DNA of 32,000 nucleotides from Acidothermus cellulolyticus 11B (GTDB taxonomy: Bacteria; Actinomycetota; Actinomycetes; Acidothermales; Acidothermaceae), in NCBI RefSeq assembly GCF_000015025.1, contig NC_008578.1, forward strand, positions 1,740,001 to 1,772,000, read 5' to 3'. The first letter of the stretch is position 1. The number at the start of each line of letters is the position of its first letter. The notes below the pieces were generated by a model. It made no database searches, was not told where the DNA came from, and worked only from the letters and a program-made list of their open reading frames with translations. A program made the translations under genes and the position numbers. Below, piece by piece: positions 10,276-16,570 of the stretch.

Positions 10276-11328
10276 CTAGGGTTTCGCCTCAAACACAAGA
10301 TTGAACGGGGTCCGGGCGGCCTCCCGGAATTCCGAAAAGCCGGCGTCGACAACTACCTGACGAATAGCCTGCGGCCCCGCTTGCGCGCCAAGCGCATATC
10401 GACCCCCTTGTGCCTTTGCGTTCGGCACACAGAGGAATGTTGAGAAGTTGTAATACACTCGGCCGACGGGATTGAGATTCTCCGCGATACCGTCACCCGC
10501 AAGCGGCTCTACGATCAACCATGTTCCGTCCGGTGTCAGGACGTCGCGAATATGGCGTGCTGCTGCGAATGGATCGCCCATGTCGTGCAAGCAATCGAAC
10601 GTCGCCACCAGATCGTATCCCGATCCCGGGAAGGACTGCGCCGTGTTGACGTCGAACGTCGTGCGGTCGGCGACGCCGGCGTCGGCCGCACGCTTGCGCG
10701 CCAAGGCGATCGAACCATCGTGGTAGTCGAATCCGGCGAACCGCGACCGCGGAAAAGCCTTCGCCATCAGGATGGTTGACGCACCAAGGCCGCATCCCAC
10801 GTCGGCAACCGTGCCGCCGTCCTGCAGTTTCGCCTCGACGCCGTCCAGCGCCGGAATCCAGCTCGTCACCAAGTTGCCTGCGTAATTCGGGCGGAAGAAC
10901 TGCTCGCAGCCGACGAAGACATCGGCGTCATGTTCATGCCACCCGACACCAGCGCCGGTGAGGAACGCTTCGCGGATACGGGAAATGGCACGCAATGCTC
11001 CAAGCGCGAGAACGAACGCACCGGGGAAATACAAGGCGCCGTCGGGATTCGTGAGAGCGAATGCTTGTTCTTCGTTGAGCGAATACTGCTCGGTTTGGGG
11101 ATCCACGTCGACGTAGCCGCCCGCTGCCTGTCCGCGCAGCCATTCGGTGAGATACCGAACGTCGGTCCGCGTGCGCTGGGCAAGCTCCGCCGGCGTGGCT
11201 GGACCGGATGCAAGGGCCTGATAGAGGCCCAACTCGTGACCGAGGACGACGTTGCCCGCCGCCATCGTCGCCCCAAGGTCTCCTGCGAAGCGACCCACGA
11301 ATTCCATGAGTTTGTCGTGATTGACCAT
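10276..11328 (-). CDS. Class I SAM-dependent methyltransferase with N-terminal winged-helix domain (Rv2258c-like architecture)
   Basis: SAM-binding motif I reads VADVGCGLGASTILMA, the post-I acidic residue lies in FAGFDYH, and later motifs read YDLVATFDCLHDMGDP and DGTWLIVEP. The N-terminal ~100 aa resemble the wHTH dimerisation domain of this family. GGGAG lies just upstream of ATG 11328. Confidence 0.85.
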   Translation of the reverse strand: MVNHDKLMEFVGRFAGDLGATMAAGNVVLGHELGLYQALASGPATPAELAQRTRTDVRYLTEWLRGQAAGGYVDVDPQTEQYSLNEEQAFALTNPDGALYFPGAFVLALGALRAISRIREAFLTGAGVGWHEHDADVFVGCEQFFRPNYAGNLVTSWIPALDGVEAKLQDGGTVADVGCGLGASTILMAKAFPRSRFAGFDYHDGSIALARKRAADAGVADRTTFDVNTAQSFPGSGYDLVATFDCLHDMGDPFAAARHIRDVLTPDGTWLIVEPLAGDGIAENLNPVGRVYYNFSTFLCVPNAKAQGGRYALGAQAGPQAIRQVVVDAGFSEFREAARTPFNLVFEAKP

Positions 11329-11609
11329 GAGCTCCCGCCCCCCTTTCGCATGCGGCTCACGTCCCTTCTGGACGAAGCCTCGAGAACCTCAAGCGCCCGG
11401 TCGGACGTTCCGCGGGCCACTATCGCGCGTCTGTATGGCGTGATGGTCACAACCCCCGACCGACCACTCGACACGGTCAGCCTCGACCACACGCTTTGCA
11501 GAATTCTTGCAGCCGGCTTGCACATGACGGACGGACGCGCCGCAACGCGTTCCCGTGCGCCCTGGCGTTTCGATACGGAGCGGACCAGCCCGCCCCCAAC
11601 GTGCGATCG

Positions 11610-12479
11610 TCAGTCAACACCGGCCGACGGAAACGCTGACACAACTGACTGCGTCTCGCTGCCGATCGCATCCCGCATCTGACCAACGTCCTCCCGGAGC
11701 AGGGCGGTGTACAGCATCCGCGTACGGACCGACGGTTCGACGCCAAGCTCTTCGGTCAGCCGATCCCGCAACCGCAGGTAGACGGATATTGCGCGCGGAA
11801 TTTCGCCAAGCGCCCAGCATACGAGAATCAACAGGCGATGGAGAGATTCATTCCAGGGCTCGGCGGCCGTCAAATATTCCAATGCCCCTACCGCTCGGCC
11901 GGGCTGTTCTGATCGCAGCGCGGCGACGCTGAGAATCCGCCCAGCCTGCTGCCAGAGCAGACGTCGCTGCTCCTCAAGGCCGGTGATCCACGGCGCTGGA
12001 GGTTCATCCTCCAACGCCCGGCCCACGCCCGCGAGCTGGAACGCCTGCGCCGCACGGATCGTTGCGAGGCGCACATCTCCGGCGTACACCAGTCGCTCCG
12101 CGTCGTCCGTAAGGTACGCAACATCGTCGAAATCAAGGTGGACAAGGGGCGCCTCGGCCAACCGGTAACCGCCCGCGAATCGCTCAATGTAAGGCGCGCC
12201 CAGTAAGGCCCGGAGCCGGCTCACCAGAGTAGCGACGCTGCCCGCGGTGTCACGCGGCATCTCCTCGCCCCAGAGCAGCTCGGCAATACGATCCGCCGAG
12301 AGAATACGACCGCGTTCGGCGGCCAGCAGTTTGAGCAAGGTGCGCGCCTTCCGCCCGGCGAGCTGCGAGAGGTCCATGACCTGGCCGCCAACGCGGGCCG
12401 TGAACGGACCTATCAGCGTCAACGACAACGGCGGCGGTTGGGCGCTGACCGTCGCCGACGGCGTACTGTGCCGATACAC
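11610..12479 (-). CDS. SARP/AfsR-family transcriptional regulator (OmpR-type winged helix plus BTAD)
   Basis: The sequence LTLIGPFTARVGGQVMDL..RKARTLLKLLAAERGRILSADRIAELLWGEE....ATLVSRLRALLG...GYRL is the SARP DNA-binding domain. The C-terminal helical part, ending in YLRLRDRLTEELGVEPSVRTRMLYTALL, is a BTAD signature. The start is ambiguous: GTG 12479, or TTG 12428 / 12422. Confidence 0.8.
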   Translation of the reverse strand: MYRHSTPSATVSAQPPPLSLTLIGPFTARVGGQVMDLSQLAGRKARTLLKLLAAERGRILSADRIAELLWGEEMPRDTAGSVATLVSRLRALLGAPYIERFAGGYRLAEAPLVHLDFDDVAYLTDDAERLVYAGDVRLATIRAAQAFQLAGVGRALEDEPPAPWITGLEEQRRLLWQQAGRILSVAALRSEQPGRAVGALEYLTAAEPWNESLHRLLILVCWALGEIPRAISVYLRLRDRLTEELGVEPSVRTRMLYTALLREDVGQMRDAIGSETQSVVSAFPSAGVD

Positions 12480-12575: not shown

Positions 12576-12887
12576 TCAGCCCCCGCTGGGAATCTGGAGA
12601 TCGCTCTTGGCCAATTCCTCGATGTTGACGTCCTTGAACGTTACGACTTTCACATTCTTCACCAAACGCTGCGGGCGGTACATATCCCAGACCCAGGCGT
12701 CCGACATGGTGATTTCGAAGAAAACATCACCGCCTGCATTGCGCACTTCGAGGTTGTACTCGTTGGTGAGGTAGAAGCGCCGCTCAGTCTCGATCACGTA
12801 GCGGAACAAGCCGACGACGTCCCGATACTCCCGGTAGAGCTGGAGCTCCATGTCGGTTTCGTAGTTTTCGAGATCCTCGGCACTCAT
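12576..12887 (-). CDS. DUF2469-family conserved actinobacterial protein (Rv2901c-like)
   Basis: The sequence [42 protein letters not shown]...[28 protein letters not shown] matches my memory of this family, which always sits just downstream of rnhB. There is an ATGA overlap with rnhB at 12884..12887. Confidence 0.88.
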
Positions 12888-13807
12888 GGGATCTCCAGCA
12901 GCTCGGCGGGACGGGACACGTCCCCATTGTCGCGCAGGTCAGCCGCACGATTCTGATCGACAAGCCGGCCAGCCGGCCCCGCCGCCGCGGGACGAGCCGC
13001 CGCGGACGCGGCCCCGGCCGAGCCCGCCGGGCCGGGCACTGCCTCAGCCGGGCCGGATGCGAAGCCAGGAGAGTCGTCGGAGTCGGCCAGCTCGGTGATT
13101 CGCAGCTCCATCCGGCCCCCAGCCCGGCGGACGGTCACGAACGAGCGCCGGTGTTCCGGGCACGGTCCGTGGCGGGCGAGCGCAGCGCGGTGTCCCGCGG
13201 TCACATACCCCTTATGGGTAGCGAACTCGTACATCGGGAACTTTTCGTGCAATTCCACCATGAGTCGATCCCGGGTCACCTTCGCCACGACGGACGCGGC
13301 TGCAATGCACGCGACGGCCTCGTCACCCTTGCAGACCGCTAGGCCGGGAGCGTTCAATCCCGCGATGGAGAAGCCGTCCGTGAGAACGTACGCGGGCCGG
13401 ACCGCAAGGCCGGCGACCGCCCGGCGCATCCCGGTGATGTTGGCTGCGTGCACCCCCAACTCGTCGACTTCGGAGGAGGGAATCACCACAACCGACCACG
13501 CTAGTGCCCGGGAGATGATCTCGTTGTAGATCGACTCGCGTGCAGCGGGAGTGAGCTGCTTGGAGTCCGCCAACCCGGCGATGCGGTTCCGCCGATCGCT
13601 CCCCAGAATCACGGCCGCGACGACGAGGGGACCGGCGCACGCGCCTCTGCCGGCTTCGTCCACCCCGGCGACCGGTTCGAGACCAAGCCGAGCCAGCCGT
13701 CGCTCGTAGCGGTAGAGATCGACAAGTCGGTGACGCTCAGCTGCGCAGGATCGACGCTCGCTGCGCACCCGCGCAGGCCCAAGCCGCGCAGTCGTCGACG
13801 CTCCCAT
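12884..13807 (-). CDS. rnhB: Ribonuclease HII with Ala/Pro/Gly-rich C-terminal tail
   Basis: The sequence [23 protein letters not shown]...DSKQLT...VLTDG...KGD....[13 protein letters not shown]...YEFATHKGY carries the RNase HII catalytic motifs. I prefer ATG 13807. The ORF-track start at 13939 would overlap the upstream ORF by 49 nt. Confidence 0.9.
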
Positions 13808-13882
13808 CGGATACACCCTAGGCGACGCGGTCCCGGGCGTGCTCACGGTCGGCGCGGACGGAGCGGCGTCCAGTCGGCGCGC

Positions 13883-13892
13883 AAAGCGCCCT
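13883..13892. repeat. Right-hand-gene-proximal copy of the 10-bp direct repeat AAAGCGCCCT that flanks the 475-aa ORF cassette
   Basis: The exact decamer aaagcgccct occurs at 13883..13892 (overlapping the ORF stop) and again at 15380..15389. Confidence 0.6.
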
Positions 13893-15318
13893 ACGCCATC
13901 GGCAGGACAAGTTCGAACCGCCACCGCGTCCCCGTCCATGGATACAACGCCACCACGACCTGTCCCGGCGGGGCCGCGGAACGCGAGGTGACCTCATCGT
14001 GGACGATACGTGGATAAATACTCGTCCAATTTTCCAGAATGTGCCGGAGAACCACATCGAGACCGTCACCGCAGGTGCGCAGCTCATACGTCAGCCAATC
14101 GAAAATCTCTTGGGCGAGGTCCTTGGTGCGCGTCGGCTTCCACCACTCAAAGTCAAGGCCGCAGTACATAAAGTCAGTGCCTAAAACGTAGGAAGCCGCT
14201 AAAATACTGACGGAATCGTTAGAGCCGACGCCTGACACACGCCCAAGTTGCAGCCCACTGCCCTGCCCCGCCGCATTGCCGGCACCAACAGCAGCTGGAA
14301 CTTCTTTATAACCCAGAACGCCGCAGAGAAAATCACGAAATTCAGCACGTGCGGTCTGCAGATCCACGCGACGTCCTGCGAGGGTATTCAGCAACGAACC
14401 CAGTTCCCAGGTAGCAAAATGCCCGTACCGCGCGCTGAACACTCCAACCTCGGTCAGCCGAAAGCGGTCGTCAAAGTCGAGGAGCACATAGCCCACCAGT
14501 TGCAACAGAGTTCTCATCGTGATCGTCGATTCCGCGGAGGTCTTGAGTTCAAGCAGCAGCCCGGCCGCGATGAGATCTGCGTCGGCGGCAAGAAGTTGGG
14601 AGCCGGTAAAGACCGGTCCAAGTGCCCACTCGCCGACACGATCCGAAAGCCGGGGGAGGAGCACGGTGTCGAAAAGGTGTCGGAAGGCGATCAGCTGCTC
14701 GATACCCGCAGGAGGTGCCAGCAACAAAAGGTCCGCTGCAGTAGGGAGCTGGCCGCGCAGTTGAGCAAGCGGACCGCTGCGCGCTACCGTCGGACCAGCA
14801 CGGTACACCTCGGTCAGGAGGGCCAACGCCCAGCACGCTCGGGCCAACACCTCCGCGTCGACCACACTCCCCGGGATAGGTCCTGCGAACACAGCCGCGT
14901 GGTCGCCGTTCGCACCCACGAATGGAACATCGAGGCGCCGAGCCAGGTCAATCAGAGCCGGGCAGAGAATGAGTCCCCCGTTTCCGGCAATGACAGCACC
15001 GCCGCGCGCCACCGAAAGATCCGGCTGTGGATGGATGAGAAACCGCAGGAGCCAGTCAGCGGCGGTCCCCACCGTGCCGGGATTGACCGCGGCGGCGGGT
15101 GCTGGCGGAACGACGATGTCTCGAGGCCGGGTCGCTCGAATAGCTCGCTGCACCTGCGGCACCCCAGCGCCATACCGCTCCTGGAGAAAGCGCCGCACCG
15201 GCGAACCGGTCGTCTTGAGCTCTTGCGTCAGTGACCGAAACATCTCGGGCCTTTCGTCGGTAGCACACCAAGAACGCACCGCCGAAGTAAAGGAATCGGC
15301 TGCTGATTTCTCCGTCAT
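13891..15318 (-). CDS. Hypothetical 475-aa protein with a RecB/Cas4-like PD-(D/E)XK nuclease signature; accessory insertion
   Basis: It is a long ORF on the operon strand with an ATG start at 15318. Numbered from M1, the motifs are D246-A-D248-LI, LLL-E257-L-K259-T and Q273-LVG-Y277 (codons 14488..14583). A Gly-rich linker covers residues 341-367, followed by a Trp-rich C-terminal module. G+C is lower than in the neighbours and many codons end in A/T. No clear SD is visible. Confidence 0.7.
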
Positions 15319-15379
15319 TAGGCTGGTCGGCTACGCCTGTCACCGCAGGTACCCGTCTCATGCGTCCGCCACACCGCGG

Positions 15380-15389
15380 AAAGCGCCCT
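15380..15389. repeat. Second copy of the 10-bp direct repeat AAAGCGCCCT
   Basis: The exact decamer lies between the lepB stop (15413) and the 475-aa ORF start (15318). Confidence 0.6.
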
Positions 15390-15412
15390 GCTCAGCACCG
15401 GCATTGCCAGCC

Positions 15413-16570
15413 TCAGCGGCTGCCCCGTCGGTGTACCCGAGGATGCGCGCATCGGCGCCGCAGCCGCAGGACGCCGACCGGTGTGACCGCGAGGACGCCG
15501 ATGGCCAGGGGCAGTGCCGACGGCATCGGCCGAACCTCACCAGCCGCCACCGCAGCCGCATTCGGAATCGCGTGATAGCCCGGCGGAATCGAGAGCAGCC
15601 GCCAATGGCTCGGGGGCCAGACGACGACAAACGCCCTGCCAATGATCTTGCTCTCTGGGATGGTTCCGCCGCCGGGATCGCCGCGATGCGCTCGGGAATC
15701 GGCGGAATTGTCCCGGTGATCACCTTCCACCCAGACCCGCCCGGGTGGTACGACGATGTCGAACCGGCTGCCCGGCCCGCTCAAATTCACCTGCGTCGTC
15801 GCGGGCTGCGCCGGCTCGCCCGACGACAAGTAGTTCTCCTGCAGCGGAACACCGTTCACCAGCAGGTGCCCGACCGCATCGCAACACTGGATGTGGTCAC
15901 CCGGCACACCGATCACCCGTTTGATGAAATCCCGTTCCCCGGGGGGCGCAAAGCCGAGAAAACCGCCGATGTCGCGAATAACACGCGCCACCGGATTGCT
16001 CGGAGTCGCTGTGGAAACCTCCGGCGTCCAGGAATCCTCGCCGTTGAAGACGATGATTTGCCCACGCTGCACGTGACCGACCTTGTACGAAAGGAGGTTC
16101 ACGATGACGCGATCGCCGACGTGCAGGGTGTTCTCCATCGACCCGGACGGAATGTAAAAGGCCTGAAAGAAAAATGTGTGAACGACCACCGCAATGACAA
16201 GGGCGACCACGAACAGCAGCCCGGTCTCCGCCCACCACGGCAGCCGGTTCTTCTTCGCCGCCCGTCGGCGACGTCGGTCCGACGCCGGCCGTTGACTGAA
16301 CCCTGTCAGCCGCCCGCCACCGGATGCCGGCGGTTGACTGCTCGACACCGCTCGTGCTCCACCGGCCGCCGTCCGATCGGCATCGACACCGGAGTGTCGG
16401 TCACCGACAACAGCTCCCCCGCCATCGGGAAGCCCGCCATCGGGAAGGGATTGCGCGGTGCCGTGAATGGATCCCGTGTCGCTGGGGAAGGAACGTGCGC
16501 TGTCGGGAGCGGACGGCGACGCCGGCCAGGGCGGCGGGGGGACGTCCCGTCCTGGCATCTCCTCGACCAC
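15413..16570 (-). CDS. lepB: Signal peptidase I
   Basis: The catalytic Ser box is IPSGSMENTL. Other conserved boxes are GDRVIVN, RGQIIVF, FIKRVIGVPGD and GDHRDNSADSR. A TM anchor LLFVVALVIAVVVH follows a long Pro/Gly/Ser-rich N-terminus. The start is GTG 16570 (ATG 16558 is an alternative). Confidence 0.9.
   Translation of the reverse strand: MVEEMPGRDVPPPPWPASPSAPDSARSFPSDTGSIHGTAQSLPDGGLPDGGGAVVGDRHSGVDADRTAAGGARAVSSSQPPASGGGRLTGFSQRPASDRRRRRAAKKNRLPWWAETGLLFVVALVIAVVVHTFFFQAFYIPSGSMENTLHVGDRVIVNLLSYKVGHVQRGQIIVFNGEDSWTPEVSTATPSNPVARVIRDIGGFLGFAPPGERDFIKRVIGVPGDHIQCCDAVGHLLVNGVPLQENYLSSGEPAQPATTQVNLSGPGSRFDIVVPPGRVWVEGDHRDNSADSRAHRGDPGGGTIPESKIIGRAFVVVWPPSHWRLLSIPPGYHAIPNAAAVAAGEVRPMPSALPLAIGVLAVTPVGVLRLRRRCAHPRVHRRGSR

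Follow-up and report, generated by a model that had tools for sequence, protein, structure and literature searches.

Genetic organization of the locus

The window analyzed in this study is a stretch of 32,000 nucleotides (nt) from Acidothermus cellulolyticus 11B (NC_008578.1, positions 1,740,001 to 1,772,000), and our subject is a single minus-strand gene, located between lepB and rnhB, whose product is a predicted PD-(D/E)XK nuclease. A sequence-only reading of the window had noted here an open reading frame (ORF) of 475 amino acids (aa), numbered from the ATG at 15318 and carrying the residues of a RecB-type nuclease. The ORF, its translation and the coordinates of the four key codons were all exact on recheck: gac at 14583-14581 encodes D246, gat at 14577-14575 encodes D248, gaa at 14550-14548 encodes E257 and aag at 14544-14542 encodes K259. 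The ORF is real, and the true start is more likely the ATG at 15243 (M26), which would give a product of 450 aa; this start is preferred because GAAAGG lies 7 nt upstream of it and because the same start is called in every related contig. An exact sequence look-up of the 475-aa product returned no record, consistent with the shorter start being the called one. Residue numbers below count from the ATG at 15318.

13891-15318, minus strand: longest ORF, 475 aa, translation confirmed
13891-15243, minus strand: probable gene, 450 aa, from M26; start called in the relative P0001/L024 and in L112-L116
15413-16570, minus strand: lepB (signal peptidase I), upstream flank
12884-13807, minus strand: rnhB (RNase HII), downstream flank; probable start ATG 13807, 307-aa gene call

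The gene is co-oriented with its neighbours in a core actinobacterial cluster with the order smc, ftsY, amt, glnB, glnD, ffh, ..., trmD, rplS, lepB, nuclease gene, rnhB, DUF2469. A simple scan of the lepB-rnhB interval for terminator-like sites found none, a result compatible with the read-through transcription that had been suggested.

Conserved residues and domain architecture

Homologues were compared in a close set of 86 sequences (46-62% identity, plus one at 98%) and a divergent set of 95 representatives (30-50% identity). The features of the protein, together with the confidence of AlphaFold2 (AF2) models given as predicted local distance difference test (pLDDT) and predicted template modelling score (pTM), are as follows.

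14314-15243, minus strand: conserved family core, residues 26-335, the full length of a typical member; AF2 pLDDT >90 over residues 30-335
15184-15231, minus strand: N-terminal helix LTxELxxxxSPVRRFL, residues 30-45; L30, T31, E33, S39, R42 and F44 invariant
15040-15078, minus strand: candidate motif I helix, residues 81-93, within model helix 80-95
14305-14733, minus strand: predicted PD-(D/E)XK nuclease domain, residues 196-338; domain model pLDDT 96.6, pTM 0.88
14542-14583, minus strand: motifs II and III, D246-A-D248 ... L-E257-L-K259-T260, from codons and conservation
14488-14502, minus strand: motif IV, Q273-x-x-x-Y277, followed by LLD281, on the helix after beta3

No variation is seen at D246, K259, T260, Y277 and D281 among the 86 close homologues, D248 and Q273 reach at least 90% conservation, and the 26 sequences listed from that alignment all have D or E at position 257. 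Conservation of at least 90% still holds for D246, D248, K259, Q273, Y277 and D281 among the 95 divergent representatives. The series D246/D248...E257xK259...Q273xxxY277, which had been picked out from this one sequence, is thus a conserved feature of the family and did not arise by chance.

The earlier description of a variable N-terminal region did not survive the alignments. Residues 26-195 are helical, are conserved throughout the family and carry invariant motifs of their own, namely LTxEL...SPVRRFL, the segment 81-93, FTGPxPG and CWALALLTE. Both termini had also been described as matching nothing recognizable; the approximately 220 N-terminal residues proved to be conserved family sequence, and the description stands for residues 336-475, the only part without relatives. 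The segment 81-93 had been suggested as the upstream helix motif. In the close-homologue alignment T82, G84, A86, A87, D88, W89, L90 and R92 are invariant in it, and a role as motif I is plausible from the sequence because D88 is among them. C162 is the only conserved cysteine, so a four-cysteine iron-sulphur (Fe-S) cluster of the Cas4 type is absent, and the site resembling the N-terminal Fe-S cysteine is the invariant serine S39. Residues 30-45 may resemble the N-terminal 'CPR' helix of Cas4/PDDEXK_1 proteins, with serine replacing the Fe-S cysteine.

Fold and profile evidence on the predicted PD-(D/E)XK nuclease

AF2 modelling on the family alignment gave a confident structure for the core and for the nuclease domain alone (values above). 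The domain consists of alpha1 (203-224), beta1 (229-233), beta2 (249-251), beta3 (254-259), alpha2 (268-280), beta4 (290-295) and beta5 (300-305), and this order of H-E-E-E-H-E-E contains the alpha-beta-beta-beta-alpha-beta core of PD-(D/E)XK enzymes. D246 and D248 are located at beta2, with D248 at the strand start, E257-x-K259 lies on beta3, and Q273 and Y277 lie on helix 268-280. As in RecB-type nucleases, motif III is followed by S/T (the invariant pair K259-T260) and QxxxY is found on the next helix.

Foldseek comparison of the full model to the PDB retrieved Dna2, Cas4, 3ijm and cap-snatching endonucleases, all at E of at least 0.04. The best match of the full model in BFVD was a RecE-like 'Exodeoxyribonuclease 8 PDDEXK-like' protein (E 1.2e-3, probability 0.98), and further BFVD matches were phage proteins annotated 'PD-(D/E)XK nuclease', DUF83/Cas4-like proteins and giant-virus helicases, the last of which we take to be helicase-nuclease fusions. 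The domain model matched 3ijm best in the PDB (E 6e-3, probability 0.97), followed by AdnAB, Dna2, ACE1 (template modelling score, TMq, 0.48), Cas4, AddAB, DXO/Rai1, HincII and SfsA. Nearly all of the top 50 PDB matches of the domain model, and many of the BFVD matches, are PD-(D/E)XK nucleases, and this fold class agrees over all three fold searches.

The proposed PD-(D/E)XK identity with RecB-type motifs II, III and IV is therefore supported by invariant residues, a high-confidence model and fold matches that are mostly PD-(D/E)XK enzymes. As for an active site formed by D248, E257 and K259, the structure model does place these residues on a PD-(D/E)XK core, and profile searches find no nuclease. 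PF12705 (PDDEXK_1) and PF01930 (Cas_Cas4) gave no match to the query at E ≤ 10 and none to the 95 divergent members at E ≤ 1. Since fold and motifs agree and profile matches fail, we class the protein with the PD-(D/E)XK nucleases, as one that bears RecB-type motifs, and not as a demonstrated member of PF12705 or Cas4. It also lacks the Fe-S cysteines of Cas4, AddB and Dna2. Membership of the Shedu family, to which an earlier comparison had pointed, is not upheld, with no match to DUF4263 (PF14082) or to any PADLOC model at E ≤ 10.

A large unnamed family in Actinomycetota

A word-indexed search returned more than 336 homologues, none of them annotated. The exhaustive profile search gave 2,947 clusters (50% identity) at E ≤ 1e-3, and a cut-off of E ≤ 1e-10 retained 1,641. 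A typical member has 305-330 aa and corresponds to query residues 26-335. The named sources are almost all Actinomycetota, and include Streptosporangiaceae, Amycolatopsis, Sciscionella, Trebonia, Acidimicrobiia, Solirubrobacterales and Streptomyces plasmids. A pattern-limited scan recorded the family in 16 of 185,579 species genomes, tblastn against phage genomes gave no match to it, and literature searches found no description of it. The family is thus large, actinobacterial and unnamed, without an entry in Pfam, NCBIfam or PADLOC.

Some members carry additional short segments. Cysteine-rich, zinc-ribbon-like extensions, e.g. CPxCG...CPC, were found at the N-termini of P0043, P0045 and P0047, and similar ones at the C-termini of P0138, P0156 and H1/L109. 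In the Pfam scan of divergent members, one family member matches the Lsr2 dimerisation domain.

Helicase fusions and ARMADA-II-like operons

Relatives were found by tblastn on 21 Streptomyces plasmids. A 793-aa protein on NZ_CP120984 joins two units: its residues 7-456 hold a complete compact UvrD-type helicase by Pfam, and its residues 486-791 the entire family core (185 bits, hidden Markov model positions 7-310), in which ADAD...DCK...QQLAGYLLLD is intact. More plasmid matches lie in genes annotated as UvrD-helicase; in one of these, with a product of 804 aa, the match is C-terminal. A plasmid protein of 454 aa contains a UvrD_C remnant together with a complete core.

The association also occurs between separate genes. 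In 8 of 50 distinct loci (~16%), counting those with at least 2.5 kb of upstream sequence, the gene that directly precedes the family gene, sometimes with a 4-nt overlap, is UvrD/GajB-like. Beyond the UvrD-like gene, a gene for a 2,150-aa YprA/DruE-like helicase is present wherever the examined DNA reaches that far, and in L106 a gene for a 1,559-aa PglX-like methyltransferase precedes it. This order upstream of the family gene matches that of ARMADA type II, which is presented as four genes without a downstream RecB-like nuclease (PMC12458937). Up to three of the four ARMADA II genes are found upstream in L106, L023 and L004, where the examined DNA ends before the ArmA position. The source window itself contains no ARMADA II genes (BrxHII-like helicase, PglX-like methyltransferase, YprA-like and GajB-like helicases).

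Three minor observations concern these loci. A second kind of DruE-like helicase (296 bits to DruE3) adjoins the family gene on the opposite strand in 3 loci (e.g. L001 7139-12619 and L027 1058-6295), and is distinct from the co-directional YprA-UvrD arrangement. Many plasmid matches span only the last ~70 core residues and lie within 4-10 kb of linear-plasmid ends. An example is L119 (3360-4758; Streptomyces plasmid pS1D4-14.1, ~5 kb from the record end), where two hypothetical genes overlap and the later one contains the match, perhaps as part of a split copy.

Other neighbourhoods of the family

The contexts of the homologues vary widely and are not uniformly core-genome; the family is accessory and mobile. 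No lepB, rnhB or trmD was found near 105 homologue loci (90 distinct). In one locus the family gene separates a type I restriction-modification (R-M) system with GmrSD from a type I-E CRISPR-Cas system, and further loci adjoin type I R-M, HipA and FtsK, or McrBC, or TraG and RHS genes. Among 139 nearest neighbours from 57 loci, all within 1.4 kb, the commonest Pfam domains are UvrD helicase (7 proteins) and phage integrase (6), followed by TPR/NB-ARC, HTH_31, N6_Mtase/HsdM, GmrSD, Vsr, NUDIX and ResIII. Integrases, resolvases and TraG recur near family genes. A tightly linked same-strand partner is absent from 28 of 47 well-flanked loci, and the family is thus mostly a stand-alone gene.

In 3 loci, of which 2 are distinct (L025 9086-9994, with a 4-nt overlap with the family gene, and L094 688-1617), the next gene downstream of the family gene encodes a 302-309-aa protein without a Pfam or PADLOC match; this gene might complete a two-gene module.

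A recent single-gene insertion between lepB and rnhB

Close relatives were retrieved by exact match to the DUF2469 protein of the window. One of them, L111, has rplS, lepB, rnhB and DUF2469 with no gene between lepB and rnhB, i.e. an empty site, and L112, L113, L115, L116 and L024 carry the 450-aa gene. The flanks of the window are 99.3% and 98.1% identical to L111, where they overlap by 20 bp. The insertion is delimited by the following features.

13893-15374, no strand assigned: 1,482-bp insert, absent from L111; its sole ORF is the nuclease gene, and it contains no recombinase
15375-15389, minus strand: direct repeat, left copy, 15 bp, AGGGCGCTTTCCGCG
13878-13892, minus strand: direct repeat, right copy, AGGGCGCTTTGCGCG, including the last two bases of the stop codon TAG (13893-13891)

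The two repeat copies bracket the insert and are identical at 14 of 15 bp. In L111 the junction reads ...GGTGCGGCGT AGGGCGCTTTCCGCG CCGACTG..., and the empty-site sequence is GGCGTAGGGCGCTTTCCGCGCCGAC. In the window the left junction reads ...GGTGCTGAGC AGGGCGCTTTCCGCG GTGTGG(insert) and the right junction (insert)CCGATGGCGT AGGGCGCTTTGCGCG CCGACTGG... The stop codon TAG is composed of a T also found at the empty site and the first two bases of the right repeat copy. Since the stop is formed at this repeat, the reading frame is open to the end of the insert. G+C content at third codon positions (GC3) is 0.64-0.67 in the gene and 0.74-0.79 in its neighbours. The window copy is a recent single-gene insertion of ~1.5 kb into a core operon. 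The empty site in a near-identical strain and a GC3 below that of the neighbours bear out the earlier suggestion of a single horizontally acquired gene in the rplS-lepB-rnhB cluster.

Several further features of the site were recorded. The left flank (1,656 nt) has 11 mismatches, and 8 of these are located within the 60 nt next to the insert (15375-15434, compared with L111 4897-4956), which comprise the 3' end of lepB and the spacer; flanking DNA carried along with the insert, or a spacer that evolves fast locally, would fit this clustering. L111 has ~54 nt more in the 3' part of rnhB (window 12884-13000, L111 5868-5908), and the gene calls there are 325 and 307 aa. A 33-nt imperfect direct repeat (14065-14097 and 15339-15371, 82% identical, blastn E 0.027) has one copy that encodes 11 residues inside the C-terminal extension; the other is within the insert, close to its left end and ahead of the start codon, where it would read WRTHETGTCGD. 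This repeat may be a trace of the origin of the insert or of the extension.

The C-terminal extension

Beyond the family core, the window protein continues in two segments.

14218-14313, minus strand: low-complexity linker, residues 336-367; pLDDT <50, GC3 down to 0.45-0.52
13894-14217, minus strand: lineage-specific extension, residues 368-475; orphan, low-confidence model, pLDDT 55-69

The other aligned family members all end near residue 335. C-terminal extensions of at least 60 aa are found in only 11 of 208 members with a full-length core, and these are mutually unrelated; that of the window recurs in P0001 alone, a protein with 98% identity from end to end. Searches with the extension covered 268 proteins of the family, 559 proteins encoded by neighbouring genes, six-frame translations and the remainder of the window, and revealed nothing related beyond P0001. 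A word-indexed search with the C-terminal 115 residues was empty and is not a valid negative, as it also missed P0001 (local phmmer E 2.6e-75). Between the window and L024, 10 substitutions fall in the 420 nt of the extension, most of them nonsynonymous and concentrated at residues 429-451, against 3 in the 930 nt of the core, and indels are absent. One reading is that the original stop was lost and that translation runs through donor sequence to the junction.

Comparison with known systems

The nuclease domains of RecB, AddA, AddB, AdnA and AdnB (PF12705) share with the family the order of D, then h-h-(D/E)-h-K-(S/T), then QxxxY, and AdnAB and AddAB are among its fold matches. In RecB and AddA the nuclease domain is C-terminal to a UvrD-type superfamily 1 (SF1) helicase, and the plasmid fusions show the same. 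Unlike these domains, however, no tested member of the family matches PF12705, and the alignment by hhalign is not significant. The family also differs in its conserved helical N-terminal half of ~170 residues with invariant motifs of its own, and in that most members are stand-alone proteins of ~310 aa, accessory and mobile rather than part of core repair.

Cas4, DUF83 and ACE1 proteins are of a similar size class, and Cas4, ACE1 and viral DUF83/Cas4-like proteins appear among the fold matches (TMq 0.40-0.48). Cas4-family proteins and the present family are both associated with defence loci. Unlike Cas4, AddB and Dna2, the family lacks the four-cysteine Fe-S cluster, and unlike Cas4 and ACE1 it has neither a Cas_Cas4 Pfam match nor linkage to cas1/cas2 or Argonaute genes. 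The likeness to ARMADA type II (ArmA-ArmD) lies in the ~16% of family loci that follow or overlap a GajB-like UvrD helicase gene, as in the order of that system. Shedu (SduA, DUF4263) is likewise a single-gene PD-(D/E)XK nuclease in defence islands. In contrast to Shedu, the N-terminal half of the family is constant and not a variable sensor, the RecB-type QxxxY is present, and no Shedu structure was found in the top 50 fold matches of either model. Free-standing homing endonuclease genes would show presence/absence polymorphism at a fixed site between conserved genes. Polymorphism is seen here within the species, no other family member lies at lepB-rnhB, and a 15-bp duplication is atypical for homing.

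Proposed function and alternatives

We favour the reading that the window copy is a metal-dependent, helicase-associated PD-(D/E)XK DNA nuclease for defence or mobile-element conflict, within the unnamed Actinomycetota family, and give it a rough probability of 0.55. By analogy with RecB-family enzymes, D246/D248 and E257 would bind Mg2+, K259 would activate water, and Q273/Y277 on the next helix would position the DNA backbone. Residues 26-195, which make up the conserved helical N-terminal half, belong to the same enzyme and probably provide its DNA-binding surface. Nucleases of the family may degrade DNA unwound by a helicase, a substrate suggested by the recurrent UvrD-type SF1 partners, fused or directly upstream. 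The window copy would then act as a single-gene defence or exclusion nuclease against incoming phage or plasmid DNA, having arrived as a 1.5-kb cassette in the lepB-rnhB spacer, where it is probably co-transcribed with the operon. The analysis documents the conserved residues, the predicted fold, the helicase fusions and operons, the neighbourhoods and the insertion polymorphism; the activity as a nuclease, its substrate, the part in defence and the expression are inferred.

A number of results weigh against this reading. Each fold match is weak on its own, with TMq at most 0.48. Scans of the protein with Pfam, NCBIfam and PADLOC gave no match at E ≤ 10, no Pfam nuclease family matched the 95 divergent members at E ≤ 1, and searches of the PDB by single sequence and by two profiles returned nothing relevant. 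PHROGs yielded one weak match, to the unannotated phrog_34041 (E 7e-4, residues 232-297). An hhalign comparison to a 58-sequence RecB nuclease alignment, a shallow template (number of effective sequences, Neff, 3.3) used here with the secondary-structure term omitted, gave a probability <1% (P 0.12-0.5), and that to a single RecB sequence was not significant. The best local segment nevertheless pairs LLELKTS with LLDYKSN of RecB (D1080/K1082), and in the extended alignment ADADLI pairs with GFIDLVF (D1067) and the QxxxY helices pair as well. The defence role is guilt by association: an annotated defence or mobile-element neighbour within 5 kb is found in only 23 of 54 loci (of at least 6 kb), some members lie among metabolic genes (Trebonia), and the window copy has no helicase partner nearby. 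Moreover, the frame of its extension ends only in the target repeat, so that it may be a partly crippled fusion.

The evidence was also weighed under other explanations. A tentative reading, to which we assign a low probability, has the family as a plug-in DNA-cleaving effector of SF1-helicase immunity, which would appear as a fifth gene in ARMADA-II-like operons, as the fused nuclease domain of plasmid UvrD proteins, as a lone defence gene, and as a recombinase-less cassette with a 15-bp duplication whose own nuclease perhaps aids its spread. It is likewise possible, at low probability, that the family is a DNA-processing factor in replication, recombination or transfer of integrative, conjugative or linear-plasmid elements, with the window copy as a stranded remnant. 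In 6 of 56 loci a tyrosine integrase gene lies no more than ~0.8 kb downstream, as a rule next to the family gene, resolvases and TraG recur, and on the 21 Streptomyces plasmids several relatives lie near linear-plasmid ends, beside primase and replication genes. Integrases and TraG, however, equally mark elements with defence cargo, the family gene adjoins R-M, GmrSD, McrBC and CRISPR genes and lies in an ARMADA-like operon, and no phage genome encodes it by tblastn. Some PD-(D/E)XK enzymes are homing endonucleases, and a selfish cassette of this kind would cleave the unoccupied lepB-rnhB spacer, or a target like it, and be copied in by repair, for its own spread and not for host defence. An insert that holds this gene alone and no recombinase, its site in a spacer between highly conserved genes, the polymorphism among strains with an identical DUF2469 protein, and the 8 of 11 left-flank mismatches close to the insert, as expected from co-conversion, all suit such a cassette. 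We nonetheless regard it as unlikely, as homing is not normally a source of 15-bp target duplications, none of the 105 other loci is at lepB-rnhB, which speaks against a recurrent target, and the family is fused to or in operons with helicases and sits in defence islands.

The window copy might instead be a decaying or non-functional fusion, which lost its stop and is translated through former spacer and foreign sequence to the insertion junction. The rarity and mutual unrelatedness of extensions in a family whose other aligned members end near residue 335, the low GC3 and pLDDT of the linker, the stop codon within the target repeat and the mostly nonsynonymous changes in the extension are in keeping with decay. 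The core, on the other hand, keeps every invariant residue with its 3 substitutions relative to L024, the frame is intact without indels in L024, and the 450-aa product is called in L112, L113, L115 and L116; decay is accordingly quite unlikely in our view. That the gene sits among essential genes and is co-oriented with them could suggest a core-genome nuclease with a housekeeping role in repair or recombination, a reading effectively refuted by the empty site in a strain with an identical DUF2469 protein. The sparse occurrence among species genomes in the pattern-limited scan and the highly variable genomic context also stand against it.

For the favoured reading of a helicase-associated defence nuclease, the combination of fold, catalytic residues and partners turns thousands of actinobacterial 'hypothetical proteins' into testable candidate nucleases, and the tie to UvrD and ARMADA-II-like genes suggests a DNA-cleaving accessory component for a recently described defence system. 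The empty and occupied lepB-rnhB alleles constitute a natural knock-in pair, in which the entry of a cassette into a core operon and its cost or gain to the host may be studied.

Genes beyond DUF2469

The cluster continues beyond DUF2469 with a SARP-family regulator, a methyltransferase, ..., yifB, ..., and a xerC-like integrase, and in annotated relatives the unnamed positions on either side of yifB are those of yraN and dprA. In other actinobacteria, DUF2469 and yraN typically lie side by side. Here the genes for the SARP/BTAD regulator and the Rv2258c-like winged-helix methyltransferase (10276-12479) lie between DUF2469 and the yraN position; they are also present in the empty-site relative and are thus outside the insertion of the nuclease gene.

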